A stretch of 53,212 nucleotides of DNA from Prorocentrum cordatum (GCA_963575745.1 CAUYUJ010000334.1:62001-115212), one strand, 5' to 3'; counted from the stretch's first letter, positions 5,351 through 48,945 are shown. The notes: generated by a model not told the origin, from the letters alone. Translations and numbers: made by a program.

Positions 5351-5531
5351 CCAAGTCGGGCCGGTCCGCCTACAGGCGGATTTGGCGCGGAGGAGGAGGA
5401 GGAGGAGGAGGAGGAGGAGGAGGAGGAGGAGGAGGAGGAGGAGGAGGACAAAAATAGTCAGAAAATCGTCCCCAGACTACTTGTTGCCTATTTTTGCAGA
5501 TTCCTCCTGTAGAGGGGCACGCCCGACTTAA
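5351..5531 (+). mobile_element. MITE family A copy
   Basis: Terminal inverted repeats (TIRs) ..AAGTCGGGC / GCCCGACTTAA; exact 8-bp TSD CGCTACGT; internal (GAG)n. Confidence 0.85.
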
Positions 5532-8830: not shown

Positions 8831-9775
8831 TAAGATGGTCCCAGGGCCCATCCTGGAGCCCTCTTGGATCGTCTTGGAGGCCCTCGGGGCCTGCCCGACA
8901 GGCCCACATCTTCGACATCGATTTGGGGTTTGTGTGGCCTTAGCATTCTCGCCTGTTTGGCCTGGTCGTTGGAGCGCCCAAGGCATCACAAGAGGCCCCA
9001 AAATGGCTTCCAAGCCCCCCAGGGGTGCCGAAGAGAGCCCCAAGACTGCCTCAGAGGGGGAGCACAAACTGACATTTAGAGCCCTGAGCCCCAAGGTAGC
9101 CTCCGAGACCACCAAGATGCCAAGAGGCCCCCCAAGAGACCCCAAAGAGGCTTTCAATAGGTACCCAAGAGGGCTCCCAAGATGTATCTAAGAAGCCTCT
9201 GGCCCACAACATGGTGAAGGGCTGGGCCGAAGGCCGCCCTGTGGTAGCAAGTCTACAGCGGCCACCACTTTCCCGTAAAGGAGGTGAAACCGAACTGCAA
9301 CGCACATACCATATTAAAACTCAACCAGCATGGACACCCCGTGGCTGAATTGTGAGGGTGCCTCGAGCGGCAGCCCAGAGTTCGGACTAATTTGTTAAGC
9401 AGGCTCAGGTGGCAAACGCTCCACTGCCCTCCCGATGGAGGAGGGGGGAGAATCCAAGCGGCTACGTAACGACCTCGTAAGCGCACAGACAACAACGATT
9501 ACTTGGTTGAATGGGTTGTTGGGGATTCGACAGCCGCACTCCGGAGCGCATTGCGCGGAAGTATCGAACTAGATCTCAGACCACGTAGTACCAGTTCAAT
9601 TCAGCCCAGTCCAAATCAAAACATCTCAACCCAACTCAATCCAACGCAATCCTGCAAATACCCAAATGGGAATGATAAAACACATGTTAAACAGGAGGGG
9701 GATACTGCTGCTGATGATGATGGTGATGATGATAATGATGGTGATAATGATGCTGATGACGACGATGATGCTGCT

Positions 9776-12969: not shown

Positions 12970-13118
12970 TTAGGTCGGGCATGTCCCCCTACAGGCGGAC
13001 TTTGGAGGAAAATTAAAAATAGTCCAGAAATGATCAAACATATATAGAAAAAGCGTCCCCAGACTATGCTTGGAGAATTTTTTAATATTCCTCCTGTAGA
13101 GGGATAGGCCCGACTTAC
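12970..13118 (+). mobile_element. MITE family A copy
   Basis: TTAGGTCGGGCATGTCCCCCTACAGG ... CCTGTAGAGGGATAGGCCCGACTTAC; TSD CTCTGGTG/CTCTGGTA. Confidence 0.85.
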
Positions 13119-13341
13119 CTCTGGTACCTACTTGGGGCAAGATCAGTGAGCATCGAATCGGGAGGTCGGATCGAATTCGAACGTTCATCGATCTGGACCG
13201 CATCGGCACGGATTCGGAACCGGAGCGACTAGGCCCCGCCAAGGTGCACAACAGCGGCGTGCGAGCATCGGCCTCGGATCGTCGGGAGGTCGGAATCGAA
13301 TCGGATCGAACCTGGCTAGCTCGAAAGGATGATGATGATGC

Positions 13342-13376
<35 letters not shown>

Positions 13377-14020
13377 GTACGATACGATACGACTCAGCCT
13401 GAATGGAGGTGTAACTCCCGCTGGATGGCAGAACTACCTGGGCAAGTGAAAGAGACAGCAGCGATGGAAGAGAGGCGGGCGTGGGCGCGCCTGAGCGCGA
13501 TCATCGTCGTGACGACCGTCCGAGCCTCCTCTTCAACCAGGCTGTGCGGCTGTCCTGCCACATCTCTGGGTCGGAGGCTAATTCCTGATAGTCTTGACTG
13601 ATCAGAAACTTAAATTGGCCCTCAAATCTCCAAGGTTTGAAAATGTGGCCGTGGCACTGGGAGCCAAAACGTGTTTTAACGTCCGCCAGATAGCGTTGAC
13701 CCCTCCACAGCAGGGCCAGGAGTGCAAGCCTGTCAGGGGCATACTTCTGGAACCTACACACGTGGCCACACCAGTCGAAAACACGGCACAAACAGACTAT
13801 ATCCCATCTCTGGAGACCTAACTTGTCTAGATAGTGGGCCCTCAGACGGTTGACATACGCCAGATGGTCCCCCAAGAAGTCCTCCTCGAAATCCTCGAAC
13901 TCGTCCAGCTTATCTGGGTCCACGTGGCCTGTCTCAGGAACCTCGGGGGCCTTCATCTGGTCATTGTTCGTCGTCATCGTCGTCGTCGTAGTCGGGGGCG
14001 GGCGGGTCGTTTTCGGGGGT

Positions 14021-14154
<134 letters not shown>

Positions 14155-14459
14155 GTGGTGGTGGTGGTGGTGTGGGGGGGGGGGGAGGGGGGGGGTGGGG
14201 GGGGCAGCTTGCGTTTAATAACACGTCTTTCCATAGCAATCTGGACGGCCCGAATTTTTCGAAGATGGTCTTGAGTAAGATGCAGGGTCCCGATGTTGTA
14301 GGTCAGGGCGGGGAGGACAACTTTGTGCAGCAATCTCAACCTATTGGAGATGGTGCCGCACTTCGTGGTCAGCAGCTTCTTATGGCGAGCAAAAGCACTC
14401 CAGGCGGCACGTATGCGCCTGTCCACTTCGACCGAAGCATTGTTATCGAAGGTAATCTG

Positions 14460-15545
14460 ATGGCCCAGGACCTTTATCCCCTGCTCTCTCGGAGTGAAAG
14501 GGATGTGAAAGACGGGGAGGGCGATATCCTCGGTTTTCTTCTGGCGCTTGGTGGGCCGAGGGGCCGCGGCGGACCTCTGGGGGCTGGGCTGGGCCCAGAC
14601 ATCATGCACGGCCAGTCGTGATTGGTGATCCTCAGACGCTGTCCACTGCATCTCATTCAAGTCCACCCACCAGCCTGCTAGCCGTACTAGATTATTCCAA
14701 GCATCAGTCATGAGGGTCACCATCGACGGCGTGAGACCTAGCAGCCAAAAGTTGTCGGCGAAGATGAGTAGCGGGACTCTTCGAATCTGCTGCGAATCCT
14801 CGCCCCTCCTGGTGTGCGCATAATACTCGAAGCCCAGCGGGCGTGCGTCTTCAAAATCCATACGGTAGCCCCAGCCCTTGGACTTGCAAATGGAGAGGAA
14901 GGGACGAATGAGAGTATGTTCCATAATGATGTTACACTTGCGAGGGCCGTCTGGGTCGCCCTGATATATCGATCGAGTCCGAGATATCGGCTGCGACGGA
15001 GGCAGGCGAGGAAGCGCGAGACGGCCTCGTCCGCGTCTAACTTCGCGGATCATGGCGGCGGTAATGACATCGGGCACCGAGGCGAGCTTGAAAGCGTGGC
15101 ACCAGACACCATGGTCAACACAGTCATAACATTTATATATATCACCAGAAACAATATGCAATGGTATCCGAAATTCGATAGCTTTCTCAACCAGGAGGCG
15201 AATAATAAAAATGACCTCGGCCGTCTGGTGCGCAGGGCGAAAGGCAAACTGGTTCGGCGACAGTGGCCGATCTGCAATGCGGCCTAGCTCGGACAGTATC
15301 TGCATATAAGCCTTCCATAGCACCGAGAGGACTGCAATGGGGCGCCATTTCTTAATGTGCAATGGATTGGTCATTTTCTCGATAAGATGAACATCGTGCT
15401 CGTCCCAGCCACAGGGCTCGTCCATCGATGGGTCATTCAGGAGTCTAAGTTCGAAGAGAGAGGCGAGGATCTCGAAGAAATCATCCGAGGCGTCCAGGAA
15501 CATTTCGACGACGAGTAACTCACTTCGGGGGCATGACTTGCCACG
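14460..15545 (-). other. Non-LTR reverse transcriptase domain
   Basis: WRPIAVLSVLWK, NQFAFRP, GDIYKCYDCVDH, IYQGDPDGP, LIFADNFWL, IKVLG. Confidence 0.93.
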
Positions 15546-16376
15546 TTTCATACGAAGGAAAACTTGCCGAACTCGAGCGCCAGAAAGTTGGACGAGGCCC
15601 TCGAGGGCCGAACGGTCCCAGCGTTTCTGGATCCAATCAGGGAGCTGCATGACGTTTTTGGACCGATGCAAATCTCCGAAGAAGGACTCGGCAAGGTCTA
15701 AGATCTCCTGGGGGTCCGTCGTCAGGACGCCTTGCTCGTTAAACATGGCCCCCTGCCAGGTCGGTGGCGGGACACTTCGGTCTGTGCGACCTTTGGGGAG
15801 AAGCCAGTCGCACTCGTACGCGAACTTAGTCTGCTGCAGCTGGCGGCGGATCATAGACTCAGCCGTGCAGTAAAAGTGTCGAAGCTGCTGCGTCGTGGCA
15901 GCTCGTCGGAGAGATCTGACGGCCTCGATGTGGGTACGGGTGATTTCGTCTTCTTCTTTCTCTGGCTTGGGGGGGGGTCTCCGGTTGCGTCGATGTCCGT
16001 GATCGGCGGCGGCGGTCGAAATGGCGTCAGCCAGAAAGCGTAACGAGGGAAGGGGGCGTCCATGGGCATCCGCACAGGGTCTGAAAGGTTCCTCATCGGG
16101 CTCCAGTGGGGGCGTCGCGGGGGCGGGGGCAGGGAGCGGAGAGGTGGCGTGTTCGGACCGACGGTGGCGGGGTCTCTTGCGGAGGGGGAGGCAGGCGGGG
16201 GGCGGGGTAGGGTCGGCCTCCAGCCGACGAGCGAAACACGGAGGAATCTTCCAGGTCGATTCTTCCCCAGGAGGCGGCGTCCAGGAATCCGTCAGCTTGC
16301 TCCAGGGTTCTCGCGGCCAGTAGGAAGGCGTGTAATGTCGCGCACTGATTCGGGCGGGGTGGTTGGACCGAGGGTC

Positions 16377-16895
16377 CGCTCCTTCCTTGGCCAGTAGGTC
16401 GACCGCCGTGCTTCCTCTATCTTGAGAGTGACCTTTGCGCCACTCTGGCAGGCGCACCTGATAGCGCCTGCAAACGTCCTGCCACAGCGCCAGCATGACG
16501 GACACCAGATTCAAATTAGATCGAGGCCGCCATCGTCCCCAGATTATCTGTTGGCAATATCGAGAGTCGAAGATCATCTCGATTTTGGCCTGAGGGGGGA
16601 TCGCCCTGACGTTGTCGGGGAGGGAGTCCTGGAAAATCAGCCACAGAAAGGCCTCAATGGGTGCCGTCAACTCTGCCGTGTTGTTCGACTCTCTACACGC
16701 TCCCACAAAGAGTGGGTCTTCAGGGCCAGTGCATGCTGGTCCACATGCTGAGGCTAAAGGAGAGGGGCCTGCCGTCGGAGACGCCGAAGAAAAAAAGTGC
16801 AAAGCCCCAACCAGCACATCCTCGGAGGTGGTCGCGCGCACGCTTCCGATACCTAGGTAGTGTGTCGTAGAAAGAGCCATCCAGGAAGAGTCCGA
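16377..16895 (-). other. RNase HI-type domain of LINE ORF2, upstream of RT
   Basis: LFLDGS...AGWGF, (frameshift), SNNTAEL, IFDSRY, WRKGH, AVDLLAKEG: the D-E-D-D acidic tetrad and His loop are present. Confidence 0.85.
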
Positions 16896-17069
16896 AAGCC
16901 TCGCCGTCCCGAAAGAAACAGTGTACAGTACGATCGACCTCGAGGGCGTCGTCGAGAGCGTTTCGATAAGCCGTGATATCCGAACAAGTCCAGTTTATTG
17001 GTTTGGGAGGCGGAGGAGGGGAAGCCGCTGTCAGAGTCCAGTTACTGCTAGGATCGCGCACCCGCAGAC

Positions 17070-17825
17070 GTAGATGTAGGGGGAGATGATCAGAGGTGGT
17101 AGCAGTAGAGAAATCTACCGTGCAACTGACCGTGCCCGTAGGGAAGTGCCGTGTGAGAACGTAGTCTATCTGCTTGGGGTCTCTACGCTGTCCAGGATCA
17201 GGAATATGTGTGTGAACACCGTACTTACACCAATGGTATGTATTTCCGCCCGAAGATCTAGATCGCACATGGTAATGAATAACTCCTTGGCCTTCCAAAC
17301 TAACTTATCCAGAACAGGGGGTTCACCGGGAGAACGAGTATAGGGACCTATATGCTCAGCAAAGAGATCGGAGTCAGCGACCGAACCGAGGTGGGCGTTA
17401 GCATCAACGCCGATAATAACCTTAGTCTCATTCGGGACTGAGAGAACGTGCTGACGAATCTCGCGCAGGCTCTCCATCAAAAGAGCCCTATCCTTTGACG
17501 GGTGCAGATGGGCGGAGCCCACCAAGACACGATTGAATTCTGGATGCTCGCACAACGCGCCGACGTAGCGGGTGCCCTGGACCACGCTCAAAATCTTCCA
17601 GCCACAGTCTCGATGGACAATGATCGCATTCTGCCTGTCCTTGCCACTTGGGGGGGCCACAATAAGGCGATGTCCTTCGATCTGCTCTGGAGGTTCTGCT
17701 CGGCGAAGGGCGAGGCATTCCTGTAAAAGCAACATGCGCCATGGGAATTCTCTCTCGAGGTCGCGTAGAAAAATTGGCAGCCCCTTCAGCGAGATCATTC
17801 TGACATTCCAAGAAAGAATACAGGA
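17070..17825 (-). other. APE-type endonuclease domain of LINE ORF2
   Basis: Motifs ILSWNV, LLLQE, NAIIVH, SAHLHP, IIGVDANA, QIDYVL, SDHLPL in canonical order, across one frameshift. Confidence 0.9.
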
Positions 17826-17879
17826 ATGGTCGACTAATCGTCGCTGTCGCCATCTACGCATAGCAAGAGAAGTGCCGCC

Positions 17880-19010
17880 TCAGGGATCCGCCACAGCGTG
17901 GATCTCACCGAGGTGTGTCTGGAGCTTGAGGTCGATGTTCAGGTCCTGCAGCAACGCGTTCGCGGAGGGCGGGATCTTCATCTTGTGGGTGGTCCTGTCG
18001 CAATCGTACACTTTGATGGGGCCTCCCTGGTGGGCGTTCCCTGGCAGCGACACCGGCAGGAAGATGACCTCCCCCCTGTCGTTCTTGATATCGAAGGCTG
18101 CGTCCCAGTTGTGCTGCGGGCTGTTCGGGAAGATGGCTGCCAGGACTGGTTTGAGCTCCGCCGCGGCCTTTACCTGCTGCTTGCTCACGCCGATCTCCCA
18201 GCCGACTTTGTCGATGTTGTGCCAAAGAGCCGTGCGACCTGCCTGGCGAAGGGAGCCACCAGTGAACTTTCTGCCTTTCATCTTCTTGAAACATACCCAC
18301 ATCTGGTCTGAGCTGTAGAAATGTACTTTTACACGTTCACCATAAGAACCAGTACCCACGACGCGCTCGTAGAGGATGTTCTCCCTGTCGAGCTCGGACT
18401 TGATCTGTGCCACCAGCTTGTCGCTAGCGTCGTATTTGAAACCACCAGCACATATAGTTTTTCGTCTACCCATGGGAATGAACACTGCTGTGGATGCTGC
18501 CGAGATAGCCGCCGAGAGCGTCGTAGGCAATGGTGTGTGCACTCCAGAGGCTGGGGTAGCTCCTCCGCCTCTCTGCTGCTGTCCACTCTCGTAGGCGTCC
18601 ATGCGAGCCTCTAGGGCCTGCTGGCGGGAGCTGAGGGAACGGACCTCCACGGAGACCGACGTGACGTTCTTTTGAATCTCCTCGATTTTCACCGTCTGTA
18701 CCTCAGTGGCGTCCTTGATCATGCCACCCATGGCACGAAGGAGACGGGCTTGACCCTCACCAAGGCCTTCTTGCACTGCATGACGGGAGGCTGCGGCAGC
18801 TGCGTCGAAAGGGGCGGAGAGCCGAGGCCTCTGCGCGGGGGGAGCGCCGAAGATGTCTCCGTCAATACCTATCGGCTCCATTGGATGATCACCACCACCA
18901 CCACCAAACATTGCGGGCGACACTGGTTTGGTCAGGATGCAAAGGAGAGGGGCGATGCTCGCCAGTCGGATGCACTGGGAGCGGGTCAAAAGCGCGCGAC
19001 CCCTCGTCAT
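17880..19010 (-). CDS. LINE ORF1 protein (coiled coil plus putative RRM-like region)
   Basis: Intact 376-aa ORF ending 18 nt before the ORF2 ATG. Heptad-like segment VKIEEIQKNVTSVSVEVRSLSSRQQALEARMDAYES, then KTICAGGF...VKVHFYSSDQMW, resembling an ORF1 RRM. Alternative ATG at 18911. Confidence 0.72.
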   Translation of the reverse strand: MTRGRALLTRSQCIRLASIAPLLCILTKPVSPAMFGGGGGDHPMEPIGIDGDIFGAPPAQRPRLSAPFDAAAAASRHAVQEGLGEGQARLLRAMGGMIKDATEVQTVKIEEIQKNVTSVSVEVRSLSSRQQALEARMDAYESGQQQRGGGATPASGVHTPLPTTLSAAISAASTAVFIPMGRRKTICAGGFKYDASDKLVAQIKSELDRENILYERVVGTGSYGERVKVHFYSSDQMWVCFKKMKGRKFTGGSLRQAGRTALWHNIDKVGWEIGVSKQQVKAAAELKPVLAAIFPNSPQHNWDAAFDIKNDRGEVIFLPVSLPGNAHQGGPIKVYDCDRTTHKMKIPPSANALLQDLNIDLKLQTHLGEIHAVADP

Positions 19011-19036
19011 TCAGGGCCTATCCTGAAGCACAATTG

Positions 19037-19051
19037 CTTGAGCCAAAATGG
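19037..19051 (-). other. Relict dinoflagellate spliced leader (15 nt) at LINE 5' end
   Basis: Plus strand CTTGAGCCAAAATGG is the reverse complement of CCATTTTGGCTCAAG, the exact 3' 15 nt of DinoSL, 26 nt upstream of the ORF1 ATG. Confidence 0.92.
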
Positions 19052-19099
19052 ATGGATGGATGATGATGATGATGAGGAGGAGGAGGAGGAGGAGGAGGA

Positions 19100-19199
19100 N
19101 NNNNNNNNNNNNNNNNNNNNNNNNNNNNNNNNNNNNNNNNNNNNNNNNNNNNNNNNNNNNNNNNNNNNNNNNNNNNNNNNNNNNNNNNNNNNNNNNNNN
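19100..19199. other. Assembly gap (100 N)
   Basis: Run of N between (GAG)n and (GTA)n tracts. Confidence 1.
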
Positions 19200-19248
<49 letters not shown>

Positions 19249-19249
19249 C

Positions 19250-19320
<71 letters not shown>

Positions 19321-19379
19321 TTATTATTATTATTATTATTAGTAGTAGTAGTAGTAGTAGTAGTTTAGTAGTAGTAGTT

Positions 19380-19469
<90 letters not shown>

Positions 19470-19477
19470 TCGTAGTC

Positions 19478-19528
<51 letters not shown>

Positions 19529-20083: not shown

Positions 20084-20247
20084 TGAGGTCGGGCATGTCC
20101 TCCTACAGGCGGATGTTGGGAGACAACTGAAACATGGTCAGAACATACAAGCACAAGCAGCCCCAAAAATAGGAGAAACATCGCCCCAAGGCTTTTCTTG
20201 GACTGCTTCTGGAGTGTGCCTCCTGTAGAGGGACGTGCCCGAGCTAC
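20084..20247 (+). mobile_element. MITE family A copy
   Basis: Both TIRs; exact TSD AGGAAGCC. Confidence 0.85.
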
Positions 20248-27825: not shown

Positions 27826-28321
27826 GGTGCCCTGTTTCGGGCCCTGTAGGGGCCCACTTTGGGGCCCGAGAGGGCCGCTCTTCATCAGACGAGGAGAAGG
27901 TCACCGTACCGCTGCCCTTCCCTCGTTCTCTCCTCTGCGGGCCTCCCGCGCGGCCCCCTTCGCCGCCGCTGGATATTCGAACCGAAGTCCTGGTGCGAGC
28001 CCCGGGAGAGGGTCTGGGGAGTAGCGGTGTGGGCACCCTTCGTTCCCCCACCTCGGGGGGCCCCAAAGGGCCCCTCTTCGGCGGCCCTCACGCCCCCCCC
28101 CTCACTCGATCGCCCCCCCATGACGCGTCCTCCGACATCTGCTCGGATTTCGGCCTCCGTGGGGCAAGGCCCTCGGAGGTATCGCCGGGACGCAGAGCGT
28201 CGGAGCCTCCCGCGCTGGGCCTCGCCAGGGGCAGACTTTTTTTTGGGTGCGCGTCGGCGCAGAGTCAGTATTGGTGTCATAAGGATCCCTCGAAGCGGCG
28301 CGCTCCGAAATTGCCTGCGCA

Positions 28322-29587
28322 TTATAAAATAGGGGGTGTCTTCTTGACCTTGCGATCCGTGTCAAGAGTGGTGCTGTTCGAGAACTTCTTCTGCCGCTGA
28401 GACCTCAAGAACCCCTCGACCTCGCTCCAGAAGATGTCCCGAAGCTGGGCAAACTGGTGCTGAAACTCTTTCGGGGGCATCTTCAGGACGTGGACGTTCC
28501 AGTCCAGGATGTGCTGGTCGGGGAGCTCGCCCCTCGGGCAGAAGTAGAAGCCCCGGACGGTGTTGAAGAGGTCGACGATGCTCTCGAACGGCCAGCCCTT
28601 GAACTGCCAGTCGGAGCCGTCGCTGATCACCGCAGCCACGCGCAGCCAGTGGCCCTTGGTGAACCCCTTCGTGCTGTCACGGACCTCGAACGTCCACATG
28701 CGGCCCTGCACGTTCCGCAAGATGTCCACGGACTCGGACCGAAGGCTCTCGAAGTACTGGACCTTGTCCCTCTTTACGCTCTCGTACTCGCCGGCCTGCA
28801 GCAGCTTCTGCGCGGTCAGGAGGTTCACCGGCGCGTTCTTGTTGCAGGGCACCAGGATGATCGGGTTGTTCTTCTTCTCCTGGCGCAGCATCTTCTCCAG
28901 CTCGGAGAGCATCGTGGGAGGCACCGCCTCGGCCTCCGGTTTGCGCTCGGTCCTGTTGTGCCAGTTGCTCACCTCCTCCTGCGCGATCCTCAGGATCAGG
29001 TCCGCGTTCGGCACGATCTTGCCCGGGACGCGGACCAGCACGTCCAGATCCTTGACGGGCCGCACTCGCGCCTCCACGTCGGCGTAGGAGATCTCCCCGG
29101 GCCTTCTTCTCTCGTCCGTCCTCGCCGACTTGAGCGGCTTCTGCCTGGCCTTCAGCGCCGCCTCCGCCTTGGGGTCGGTCGGCACGGCCGGCTCGAGCGT
29201 GGCCGGGGCCTCGTCCGTAGGCTCGGGCCCGTCCCCGTCGCGCTCGCGCTTCCTGGCCACGCAGAGGCCCTTGCACGTGCTCTCCCGGCCGACCAGGTAG
29301 TCGCAGAGGTCCCCGCGGTTCGCCACGCCGATGTACTGGAAGCCACGCTTCCGTGTGGTCTCCAGGGTGTATGGCCTGTCGCCGGAGATCTCTCGGAGCA
29401 TGTACCACACGGATCCGACGTCCATCTTCGGCATGCCATCCGCGATCCGGTAGCCGCACTTGGAGCCGCGGTGGACCTTCTGGCCGTCGAAGAGGAGGTA
29501 GTCATCCTGGAACTTGACCTTCTTGCCCGCCACGTTGAAGTGCCTCAGCAAGACGATGGGGTCTTCCTTGAGATCCAAGCTGCCCAT
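28322..29587 (-). CDS. CDC73: CDC73/parafibromin-like Paf1 complex subunit, 421 aa, intronless
   Basis: Uninterrupted ORF with strongly GC-biased third positions. N-terminal EDPIVLLRHF resembles the Cdc73 N-terminus. C-terminal NPIILVP...VNLLTAQKLLQAGEY...TFEVRDST...WLRVAAVISDGSDWQFKGWP...LFNTVRGFY...WNVHVLKM matches the Cdc73 C-terminal Ras-like domain. First ATG is at 29587; the ORF-track start at 29635 is GTG. Confidence 0.88.
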   Translation of the reverse strand: MGSLDLKEDPIVLLRHFNVAGKKVKFQDDYLLFDGQKVHRGSKCGYRIADGMPKMDVGSVWYMLREISGDRPYTLETTRKRGFQYIGVANRGDLCDYLVGRESTCKGLCVARKRERDGDGPEPTDEAPATLEPAVPTDPKAEAALKARQKPLKSARTDERRRPGEISYADVEARVRPVKDLDVLVRVPGKIVPNADLILRIAQEEVSNWHNRTERKPEAEAVPPTMLSELEKMLRQEKKNNPIILVPCNKNAPVNLLTAQKLLQAGEYESVKRDKVQYFESLRSESVDILRNVQGRMWTFEVRDSTKGFTKGHWLRVAAVISDGSDWQFKGWPFESIVDLFNTVRGFYFCPRGELPDQHILDWNVHVLKMPPKEFQHQFAQLRDIFWSEVEGFLRSQRQKKFSNSTTLDTDRKVKKTPPIL

Positions 29588-29719
29588 CCCGCAGCCCCTC
29601 GAGCGCCCACCGCTCAAACAAGCGAGGCACCACACCTCTGCGCTGCCATGCGCCCGGCCGGTGCGCGGACGCCTTGCACAGCGCCCGCCTATAGGAGGCC
29701 CCGCCCTGCCTCCTCGGGC

Positions 29720-29741
29720 CCGGAGCCTATAAGGCTACGGA
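29720..29741 (-). other. Degenerate relict dinoflagellate spliced leader upstream of CDC73
   Basis: Minus strand reads TCCGTAGCCTTATAGGCTCCGG versus DinoSL TCCGTAGCCATTTTGGCTCAAG: 17/22 identical, ungapped, sense orientation, 132 nt upstream of the ATG. Confidence 0.65.
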
Positions 29742-41469: not shown

Positions 41470-42839
41470 GCGTACTTCAGCAGGGCCCCGCCCGCGAGGT
41501 GCTCGAGGCTCTCGTCGAAGATGCACCCCTCGGGTGATCGCCGCGCCTATCCTGGCGTGCACCGTGGAGAGCCTGGCGCCGCCAGTGCTCTGTCTCCTCG
41601 CTTCGCCAGCTCGCTCGCCTTGTCTGGGCCGCGGCTCGCGTGCTTCTGGAGGAGGTCCTGGGCCTCTGGGGGCCTTCTGGTCCTCCCGGTTGGGTCCTGT
41701 GGACGCCCTGGCCGGAGGGCGCGCACGGTCAGGTCTGGAGGCAGATTTCTTCGCCCTTCGTGCCCGGAGGGAGCGGCGAGGGAAGGGGCAGAGGAGGAGG
41801 AGGAGGAGGAGGAGGAGGAGGAGGAGGAGGAGGAGGAGGAGGAGGAGGAGAGGAGGAGGAGGAGGAGGGGAGGAGGAGGAGGAGGAGGAGGAGGAGGAGG
41901 AGAGGAGGCGGAGGAGGAGGGAGGAGGGAGGGAGGAGGAGGGAGAGGAGGAGGAGGAGGGTAGGAGGAGGAGGAGGAGGAGGAGGAGGAGGAGGAGGGAG
42001 GAGGGAGGAGGGAGGAGGAGGGAGGAGGGAGGAGGGAGGAGGTAGGAGGGAGGAGGGGAGGAGGGGGAGGAGGGTAGGGAGGGAGGAGAGGAGTAGGAGG
42101 AGGGAGGGGAGAGGAGGAGGAGGAGGGGAGGAGGGAGGAGGAGGAGGAGGTGAGGAGGGGAGGAGAAGGGGGAGGGGAGGAGGAGGAGGAGGAGGAGGAG
42201 GAGGAGGAGGGGGAGGGGGGAGGAGGAGGAGGTCGTGGAAGGCCCTCGCGGCCTCGTCCACCTCGGCCTGGCGGGCCACGGCCGAGCCAGGCGCGGGGGC
42301 CCGCGCTATGGCCACGCCCGCCCTGAAAGGCGGAGGCCTCTCGGGGGGCCCACGACGGCGGTCCCCCGTTCCTGTCTTCCTCCTCCTCCTCCTCCTCCTC
42401 CTCCGCGTCCTCTTCCGCCTCCTCCTTCTCCTCGCTCCTCGCTCCTCCTCCTCTTCCTCCTCCTCCTCCTCCTCCTCCCTAGGGGCCAAGGAAGACTTGA
42501 GCACAAACGGTTGCGGAGAGGAACGGGGGAGGGAGAATAAGGCGAAACGCGGCGAAGCATGGCCACAAGAATGTGGATCAAGAGGGGCCGAGGGACGGTA
42601 GGAAGCGAGCGAGACCTGACGGACGAAGCAAGGATGGAGCGGACCAAGGGACCGAGGGCTCGTGGAGATACCCCTAGCGAGGACCATCCCAAGGTGGAGA
42701 CCCAGGGGACGAAAAGCACGAGGGCATCCCTCCGAAGCTAATGCCGTTCTCAGCCCTCGTGCCGTCGCCGTCGCCGTCGCTGTCGCCGCGCCGCCGCCAT
42801 CGCCGCCGCCACCGCCGCCGCCACCGCCACCGCCGTCGC

Positions 42840-48549: not shown

Positions 48550-48945
48550 CTCCCTATGAGGCCACGGAACTTGTGAGGGGTGTAACAACATGGGTGCTGG
48601 GCGGCATGCCAACGCTTCCACTGTGGCTTTCGGTGGTGCTCCATATGGGGCCACGAGACGTGTGAGGGGTGTGCCGAACTGGTGAGGGGTGGCATGCGAA
48701 CGCTCCCACTGGGGCTTTCGGTGGTGCTCCCTATGGGGTCACGAAGCGTGCGAGGGATGTGCCGAAATGGGTGCGGGGCAACATGCAAACACTCCCACCG
48801 GGGCCTCCGGCCTCCTGTGGGGTCACGAAGCGTGTGAGGGGTGTGCCGAACTGGGTGTGGGGCCGCATGCGAACGCTCCCGCTGGGGCCTCCAGCGGACT
48901 CCCTATGGGGTCACGAAGCGTGTGAGGGGTGTGCCGAGATGGCTG
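48550..48945. repeat. Tandem repeat, ~87-bp unit, about 5 copies
   Basis: GGGGTCACGAAGCGTGTGAGGGGTGTGCCGA-like motif near 48561, 48651, 48738, 48823 and 48911. Confidence 0.8.

Follow-up and report, generated by a model that had tools for sequence, protein, structure and literature searches.

A putative LINE of Prorocentrum cordatum that begins with a relic of the dinoflagellate spliced leader

The element and its coding regions

We analysed a 53,212-nt stretch of genomic DNA from Prorocentrum cordatum (GCA_963575745.1 CAUYUJ010000334.1:62001-115212), referred to here as the window, in which positions are counted from the first letter. Judged by its sequence, the minus strand between 13328 and 19051 carries a nearly full-length APE-type non-LTR retrotransposon (LINE) with an L1-like ORF1p, from a Prorocentrum-like dinoflagellate. 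This agrees with the initial annotation, which had called the element a LINE: Pfam identified RVT_1 and RNase_H, sequence motifs and the ESM Atlas pointed to an endonuclease, and the structural model of ORF1 resembled L1 ORF1p. All features of the element described below lie on the minus strand and are named in the order of transcription.

ORF1 (17880-19010, predicted by translation) encodes 376 aa and had no match in a Pfam search. Its family comprised 69 representative clusters at E<=1e-3, and its closest relative was an unnamed P. cordatum protein with 86-95% identity. An AlphaFold model based on a 15-sequence alignment (pLDDT 70.8) predicted a disordered N-terminus and a helix (85-141), followed by an RRM-like domain with the order beta-alpha-beta-beta-alpha-beta and by a C-terminal domain. 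The best Foldseek match to this model was the human L1 ORF1p trimer 2ykp, with a probability of 0.99 and an E-value of 1.5e-3 that is weak as such; nine of the top ten rows were human L1 ORF1p chains, and many RRMs came after these. The predicted fold is L1-ORF1p-like, with a coiled coil, an RRM and a C-terminal domain.

The start codon of ORF2 lies 18 nt 3' of the ORF1 stop and in the same frame. The first part of ORF2 (16720-17861) encodes a putative APE-type endonuclease, in which the EEP/APE motifs SWNVR, LLQE, GVDAN, IDYV and SDH are visible, and which scored 0.95 against Exo_endo_phos clusters of the ESM Atlas with 171 shared features. A 1-nt frameshift in an A-run near 17242 splits this domain; Pfam and PDB sequence searches with the two resulting halves gave no matches, nor did a search of the endonuclease half against longer proteins. 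A related 1172-nt contig from sequencing run X1 carried one extra base at the position of this frameshift. The reverse transcriptase (RT) core as matched by PF00078 (E 5e-9) occupies 14913-15356, and its nearest solved structures were R2 RTs (3.8e-7). Further 3', a C-rich and (CA)n microsatellite inside ORF2 (14022-14204) coincides with a change of frame, and the Cys/His-rich C-terminal part (13501-13977) is read in a second frame. Both frame breaks are located in error-prone repeats, and this copy of the LINE is therefore young or nearly intact. Published supplementary data describe the LINEs of P. cordatum as young (Kimura 0-10).

A predicted RNase H domain (16377-16694; PF00075, E 1.4e-5) is located between the endonuclease and the RT, with a Pfam score just at the cut-off. 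In the better-known LINE clades the RNase H is placed after the RT, and the order endonuclease, RNase H, RT is unusual.

ORF2 is followed by a 3' UTR of 124 nt (13377-13500) and by a (CAT)16 tract (13328-13376) that is likely the 3' tail. The 14 nt that close the tail region, CATCATCATCATCC, occur a second time 8 nt upstream of the 5' end of the element. They could represent a target-site duplication within a (TCC)n/(CAT)n microsatellite, but are themselves microsatellite sequence of low complexity. Self-BLAST of 13001-19071 against the window returned the self match and a small unrelated repeat only, and revealed neither terminal direct repeats nor a second LINE copy in the window. A repeat some 100-140 bp long, whose inverted ends read CCCTCTACAGGAGG ... 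CCGCCTGTAGGRGGACATGCCCGACC, is dispersed in the window; it occurs at 13017-13150 and 20100-20245, one copy on each side of the LINE, and near 5462, 6268, 35688, 47322 and 51626. It may be a MITE, or an introner element as reported for P. cordatum.

The LINE family is multi-copy. In sequencing run X1, 40 contigs aligned at 85-99+% likeness: 5 at 99% or above, 21 at 95-99%, 6 at 90-95% and 8 below 90%. Contigs of runs X1-X4, aligned at 85% likeness, covered 17000-18903, which is short of the 5' junction of the element; none aligned to 18960-19099, of which 19051-19099 was skipped as repeat. Pieces of the family were also present in a second organism. Searches for relatives of ORF1 gave 85 pattern matches in metagenome contigs and 18 in genome contigs, none of which was confirmed, and no relatives with DNA context in viral contigs. 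Likewise, no ORF2 relative was confirmed in viral contigs, and a 22-nt pattern from the 5' UTR was absent from both metagenome and viral contigs.

The leader relic and its junction

The 5' end of the element was found to be a piece of the spliced leader found in dinoflagellates (DinoSL), DCCGUAGCCAUUUUGGCUCAAG (PMC8045281, PMC7245778). The minus-strand sequence from 19051 to 19037, CCATTTTGGCTCAAG, is identical in 15/15 positions to DinoSL nt 8-22, and its terminal AG coincides with the 3' end of the leader exon. The seven nucleotides upstream (CATCCAT) are unlike leader nt 1-7, so the length of the relic is 15 nt. It is directly followed by CA rather than by the GT donor of the SL RNA gene. 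The LINE sequence joined to the leader reads CAATTGTGCTTCAGG. Between the relic and ORF1 lies a 26-nt UTR, CAATTGTGCTTCAGGATAGGCCCTGA (19011-19036), which contains no ATG and whose last codon is an in-frame TGA, such that the ORF1 start codon (19010-19008) is the first ATG behind the relic. Rfam families were absent both from the window, at gathering score, and from 18700-19099, at E<=1, and the antisense ORF that runs through the relic had no match among predicted proteins.

Upstream of the relic, the minus strand carries the pyrimidine-rich 5' flank (TCC)9 (ATC)5 CCATCCAT (19052-19099), the last part of which is (CATC)2; in all, the relic is preceded by about 60 nt of pyrimidine-rich repeat. 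Still further upstream, a gap of 100 N (19100-19199) is followed by (TAC)~111 at 19200-19528. The initial annotation had stated that the element begins with the 3' 15 nt of DinoSL, 26 nt 5' of the ORF1 ATG, and that nothing but microsatellite lies beyond, and these findings bear out both statements. The proximity of the junction to the gap (48 nt) and to microsatellites, and the skipping of 19051-19099 as repeat in the contig alignment, could be taken to mean that the junction is an assembly artefact or the leader match a product of chance. We give this reading almost no credence, because the relic, UTR and ORF1 are contiguous in one contig piece and because the exact 15-mer appeared in none of 100 dinucleotide-preserving shuffles. 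In the window itself the 15-mer is the sole exact match on either strand, and allowing up to two mismatches gave 1 match as against 0.21 expected. The junction lies within uninterrupted sequence, and the gap therefore bears on the sequence farther upstream rather than on the junction.

LINEs that target spliced-leader genes occur in trypanosomatids and nematodes, and the relic might accordingly be part of a leader that was there before the LINE, through site-specific insertion into an SL RNA gene as in SLACS, CZAR and NeSL-1 or through a chance landing behind an older relic. However, leader nt 1-7 are missing upstream, the LINE joins on precisely where the exon ends, and the CA behind the relic is not a GT donor. 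Parts of an SL RNA gene were not found on both sides of the LINE, neither in the 7 nt upstream nor 3' of the tail, where nothing leader-like or intron-like follows. In addition, the endonuclease is APE-like, whereas that of the NeSL group is of the restriction-like type. A pre-existing leader is for these reasons exceedingly unlikely.

LINE RTs also switch templates, as in U6-L1 chimeras. Having reached the 5' end of the LINE RNA, the RT might have jumped to SL RNA or to a different mRNA with a leader, which would be in keeping with the truncation of the relic. Copying of SL RNA would, however, start in its 3' intron and not at the last base of the exon, and a jump onto another mRNA would carry in the body of that mRNA. 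The join observed here is a precise trans-splice product, and we consider template switching very unlikely.

Leader sequences elsewhere in the window and in viral DNA

The initial annotation had also pointed to a retrocopy of CDC73 about 10 kb from the LINE. This was substantiated, and the retrocopy lies on the same strand as the LINE (28237-29741, minus strand). An intronless ORF of 470 aa (28325-29734, minus strand) matched CDC73_C with an E-value of 5.7e-29. It is preceded, about 70 nt before the ATG, by the leader relic TCCGTAGCCTTATAGGCTCCGG, which agrees with the full leader in 17/22 positions and scored 16/21 in a scan with 21-mers, and an A9 tract lies about 85 nt 3' of the stop codon. 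With these features the CDC73 copy is a classic leader-plus-poly(A) retrogene. The 3' tails of the two elements differ, that of the LINE being (CAT)16 and that of the CDC73 retrocopy A9. This difference speaks weakly, as a single pair, against the idea of the initial annotation that the LINE enzyme may make the SL-tagged retrogenes, the CDC73 retrocopy among them. Human L1 makes processed pseudogenes in trans (PMC12014239), and by analogy an action of the L1-like ORF1p in trans is conceivable.

The 21-mer scan identified four leader-like sites with at least 15/21 matches in the window: those of the LINE and the CDC73 copy, and two others at 42496-42516 (16/21) and 48756-48776 (15/21). Three sites were counted at 16/21, as against 0.09 expected. 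All four are on the minus strand, like the LINE, which is consistent with a LINE in the sense orientation of a one-directional gene array rich in relics. The site at 42496-42516 is followed by a GAG-rich low-complexity stretch. At 8998-9010 (minus strand), the sequence AGCCATTTTGG contains an 11-nt leader piece and then diverged sequence, and may be a decayed relic or a chance match.

The exact 21-nt DinoSL was also present at 134 distinct sites in 119 IMG/VR loci. These loci are contigs from MAGs of giant viruses, their median GC is 20.7%, and their 50 longest ORFs include Rpb1, AEP primase-helicase, topo II, a capping methyltransferase, RNR, PolB and NAD ligase. The leader reads ACCGTAG... 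at 126 of the 134 sites and is then followed by GT at three of the 134; the first ATG is located at a median distance of 49 nt downstream. The ORFs behind these sites include DUF4116 repeats and CCCH and RING fingers. These viruses carry a DNA-encoded host leader before some of their genes, for which we found no report in the literature searched; the sites could be captured cDNAs or leader mimicry. A tblastn search with the LINE proteins against the 119 loci (956 kb) gave no matches, and none of the 76 distinct ORFs of at least 200 aa directly behind the leader encoded an RT or endonuclease. Since these loci are giant-virus DNA, they are uninformative on LINEs. In one locus of the set (L067), the leader is followed by an ORF of 759 aa that carries a viral RdRP_1 domain, at the extreme end of a contig of 5.3 kb, which fits the leader-bearing dinoRNAV transcripts that have been described (PMC10235124).

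Origin of the 5' end and comparison with known systems

The last base of the leader, a short UTR and the first ATG of the LINE follow one another as in a trans-splice product, so the simplest history is the retrotransposition of a leader-bearing LINE mRNA. Probably, reverse transcription of an SL-trans-spliced LINE mRNA as far as leader position 8 gave rise to the present copy. The proposal of the initial annotation that trans-spliced LINE RNA was retrotransposed is supported for this copy, in which the relic is joined exactly at the 3' end of the leader. In such a history the template would be a mature LINE mRNA to which host trans-splicing had added DinoSL. The machinery of the LINE itself would reverse-transcribe this mRNA at a nicked (CAT)n/(TCC)n microsatellite, and cDNA synthesis or joining of the 5' end would halt at leader position 8. 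A trans-spliced mRNA is devoid of sequence upstream of the acceptor, and daughter copies would therefore inherit no upstream promoter; their transcription would depend on an internal promoter or on read-through from the same-strand gene array of the host. Since the relic has a terminal AG with a pyrimidine-rich tract in front of it, the acceptor would be re-created at the same point, and with an acceptor at that base the same SL-LINE mRNA could form again. The insertion site cannot be reconstructed with confidence, because the upstream flank is a microsatellite beside an assembly gap.

The relic is a lone 5'-truncated 15-mer, where a complete copy would be expected to give a 22-mer or 22+15. 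Its start at leader position 8 may reflect re-splicing at an internal AG, a stop of the RT or microhomology, all of which fit and between which we make no choice. Slamovits and Keeling reportedly noted that re-splicing of relic-bearing genes makes use of the internal AG that precedes leader position 8. Leader position 2 or 8 is the start of 70% of the DinoSL cDNAs in Polarella (PMC7245778); this suggests a tendency of reverse transcription to end at these positions and fits a relic that starts at position 8. Finally, the flank of CATC repeats shares CCAT with the leader, so that microhomology could have served to join the 5' end.

A different history would be that of a one-off event, in which the family normally has a longer 5' UTR and a promoter of its own, and an unusual read-through transcript underwent trans-splicing at a cryptic acceptor just upstream of ORF1 before it was retrotransposed. 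In favour of such an event, the 5' junction is known from one LINE copy, and there are two published observations. RVT_1 is under-represented among DinoSL-type full-length transcripts of Polarella CCMP2088 (p 9e-56; supplement table 11), and a 2019 Symbiodinium preprint reports that relic-bearing genes and RT genes do not overlap in function and calls retroposition and retrotransposition independent. However, the 26-nt UTR with its immediate first ATG resembles an ordinary dinoflagellate mRNA start, and the trans-spliced mRNA, as the exported and translated form, would be the expected template. Song et al. 2017 moreover found RT functions, under the term 'RNA-dependent DNA replication', enriched among leader-relic genes (PMC5585692), and no nuclear dinoflagellate transcript without leader is known according to the literature at hand. 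The published hints on a link between leader and LINEs point both ways; on balance, we regard a one-off event as unlikely.

Retrotransposition of SL-trans-spliced LINE mRNA, our preferred reading for this copy, might also be extended to the whole family, although here our confidence is low and we put the extension forward as a doubtful possibility. Young Prorocentrum LINEs would then have no inheritable upstream promoter. They would be transcribed by read-through, excised and capped by host trans-splicing at the acceptor re-created by the relic, and inserted with the leader. The same L1-like pair of ORF1p and ORF2p, able to copy leader-capped RNA nearly to its end, would also have produced the SL-tagged retrogenes, whose source has long been sought and which account for at least a fifth of dinoflagellate genes. 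Reviews describe the RT behind the retroposition of leader-tagged mRNA as unknown and favour LTR/copia elements (PMC6050394, PMC5585692).

The leader relic on this LINE copy indicates that LINE RNA goes through the normal trans-splicing route, and that insertion of the LINE type can copy leader-capped RNA to within 7 nt of its end. In the literature searched, we found no description of a dinoflagellate LINE with the leader as its 5' end, or of trans-splicing defining the 5' end of a LINE. Elements that are physically joined to spliced-leader sequence, as this LINE is, include SLACS, CZAR, CRE and NeSL-1, which target the leader gene for insertion and have it on both flanks. The LINE described here differs from these in that the leader piece is present 5' only and ends at the exon boundary.

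Human LINE-1 shares with the present element the architecture of ORF1p, the bicistronic arrangement of ORF1 and then ORF2, and, by prediction, the combination of an APE endonuclease with an RT. However, the promoter of L1 is internal and its tail is poly(A), whereas the element described here has a predicted RNase H between endonuclease and RT, a microsatellite tail and a 5' end formed by a leader relic. Within the dinoflagellates, the SymbioLINE elements of Symbiodiniaceae are likewise LINEs with two ORFs, but in these elements ORF1 encodes a DNA methyltransferase (de Mendoza et al. 2018, PMC5890265), and the available text of that paper does not mention 'spliced leader' or 'DinoSL'.

The DinoSL-relic retrogenes resemble the LINE in having a 5' leader relic on an intronless retro-copy, joined at the trans-splice point. 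They differ from it in that the RNA copied in the LINE encodes the retrotransposition machinery itself, in that the LINE tail is (CAT)16 and not poly(A), and in that the LINE relic is a lone 15-mer. Such DinoSL-relic 'recycled cDNAs' are said to have been described by Slamovits and Keeling in 2008. Song et al. 2017 counted genes with RT function as 'retrogenes', and LINEs with a leader 5' end are not described in the available parts of that study (PMC5585692).

The logic proposed for the LINE, in which no upstream promoter is inherited and RNA processing sets the 5' end, is like that of R2 and L1Tc. The 5' end of R2 is released from a host co-transcript by a self-cleaving HDV-like ribozyme. 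In L1Tc, the 5' end is also cut from a host co-transcript by a self-cleaving HDV-like ribozyme (PMC3185411, PMC3383444). Rfam detected no HDV-like ribozyme at the 5' end of the LINE, either in the window or in the 5' 400 nt. Unlike in R2 and L1Tc, host trans-splicing would both process the RNA of the LINE and supply its cap. Trans-splicing may thus be a possible third route to the 5' end of a LINE, besides internal promoters and self-cleaving ribozymes.
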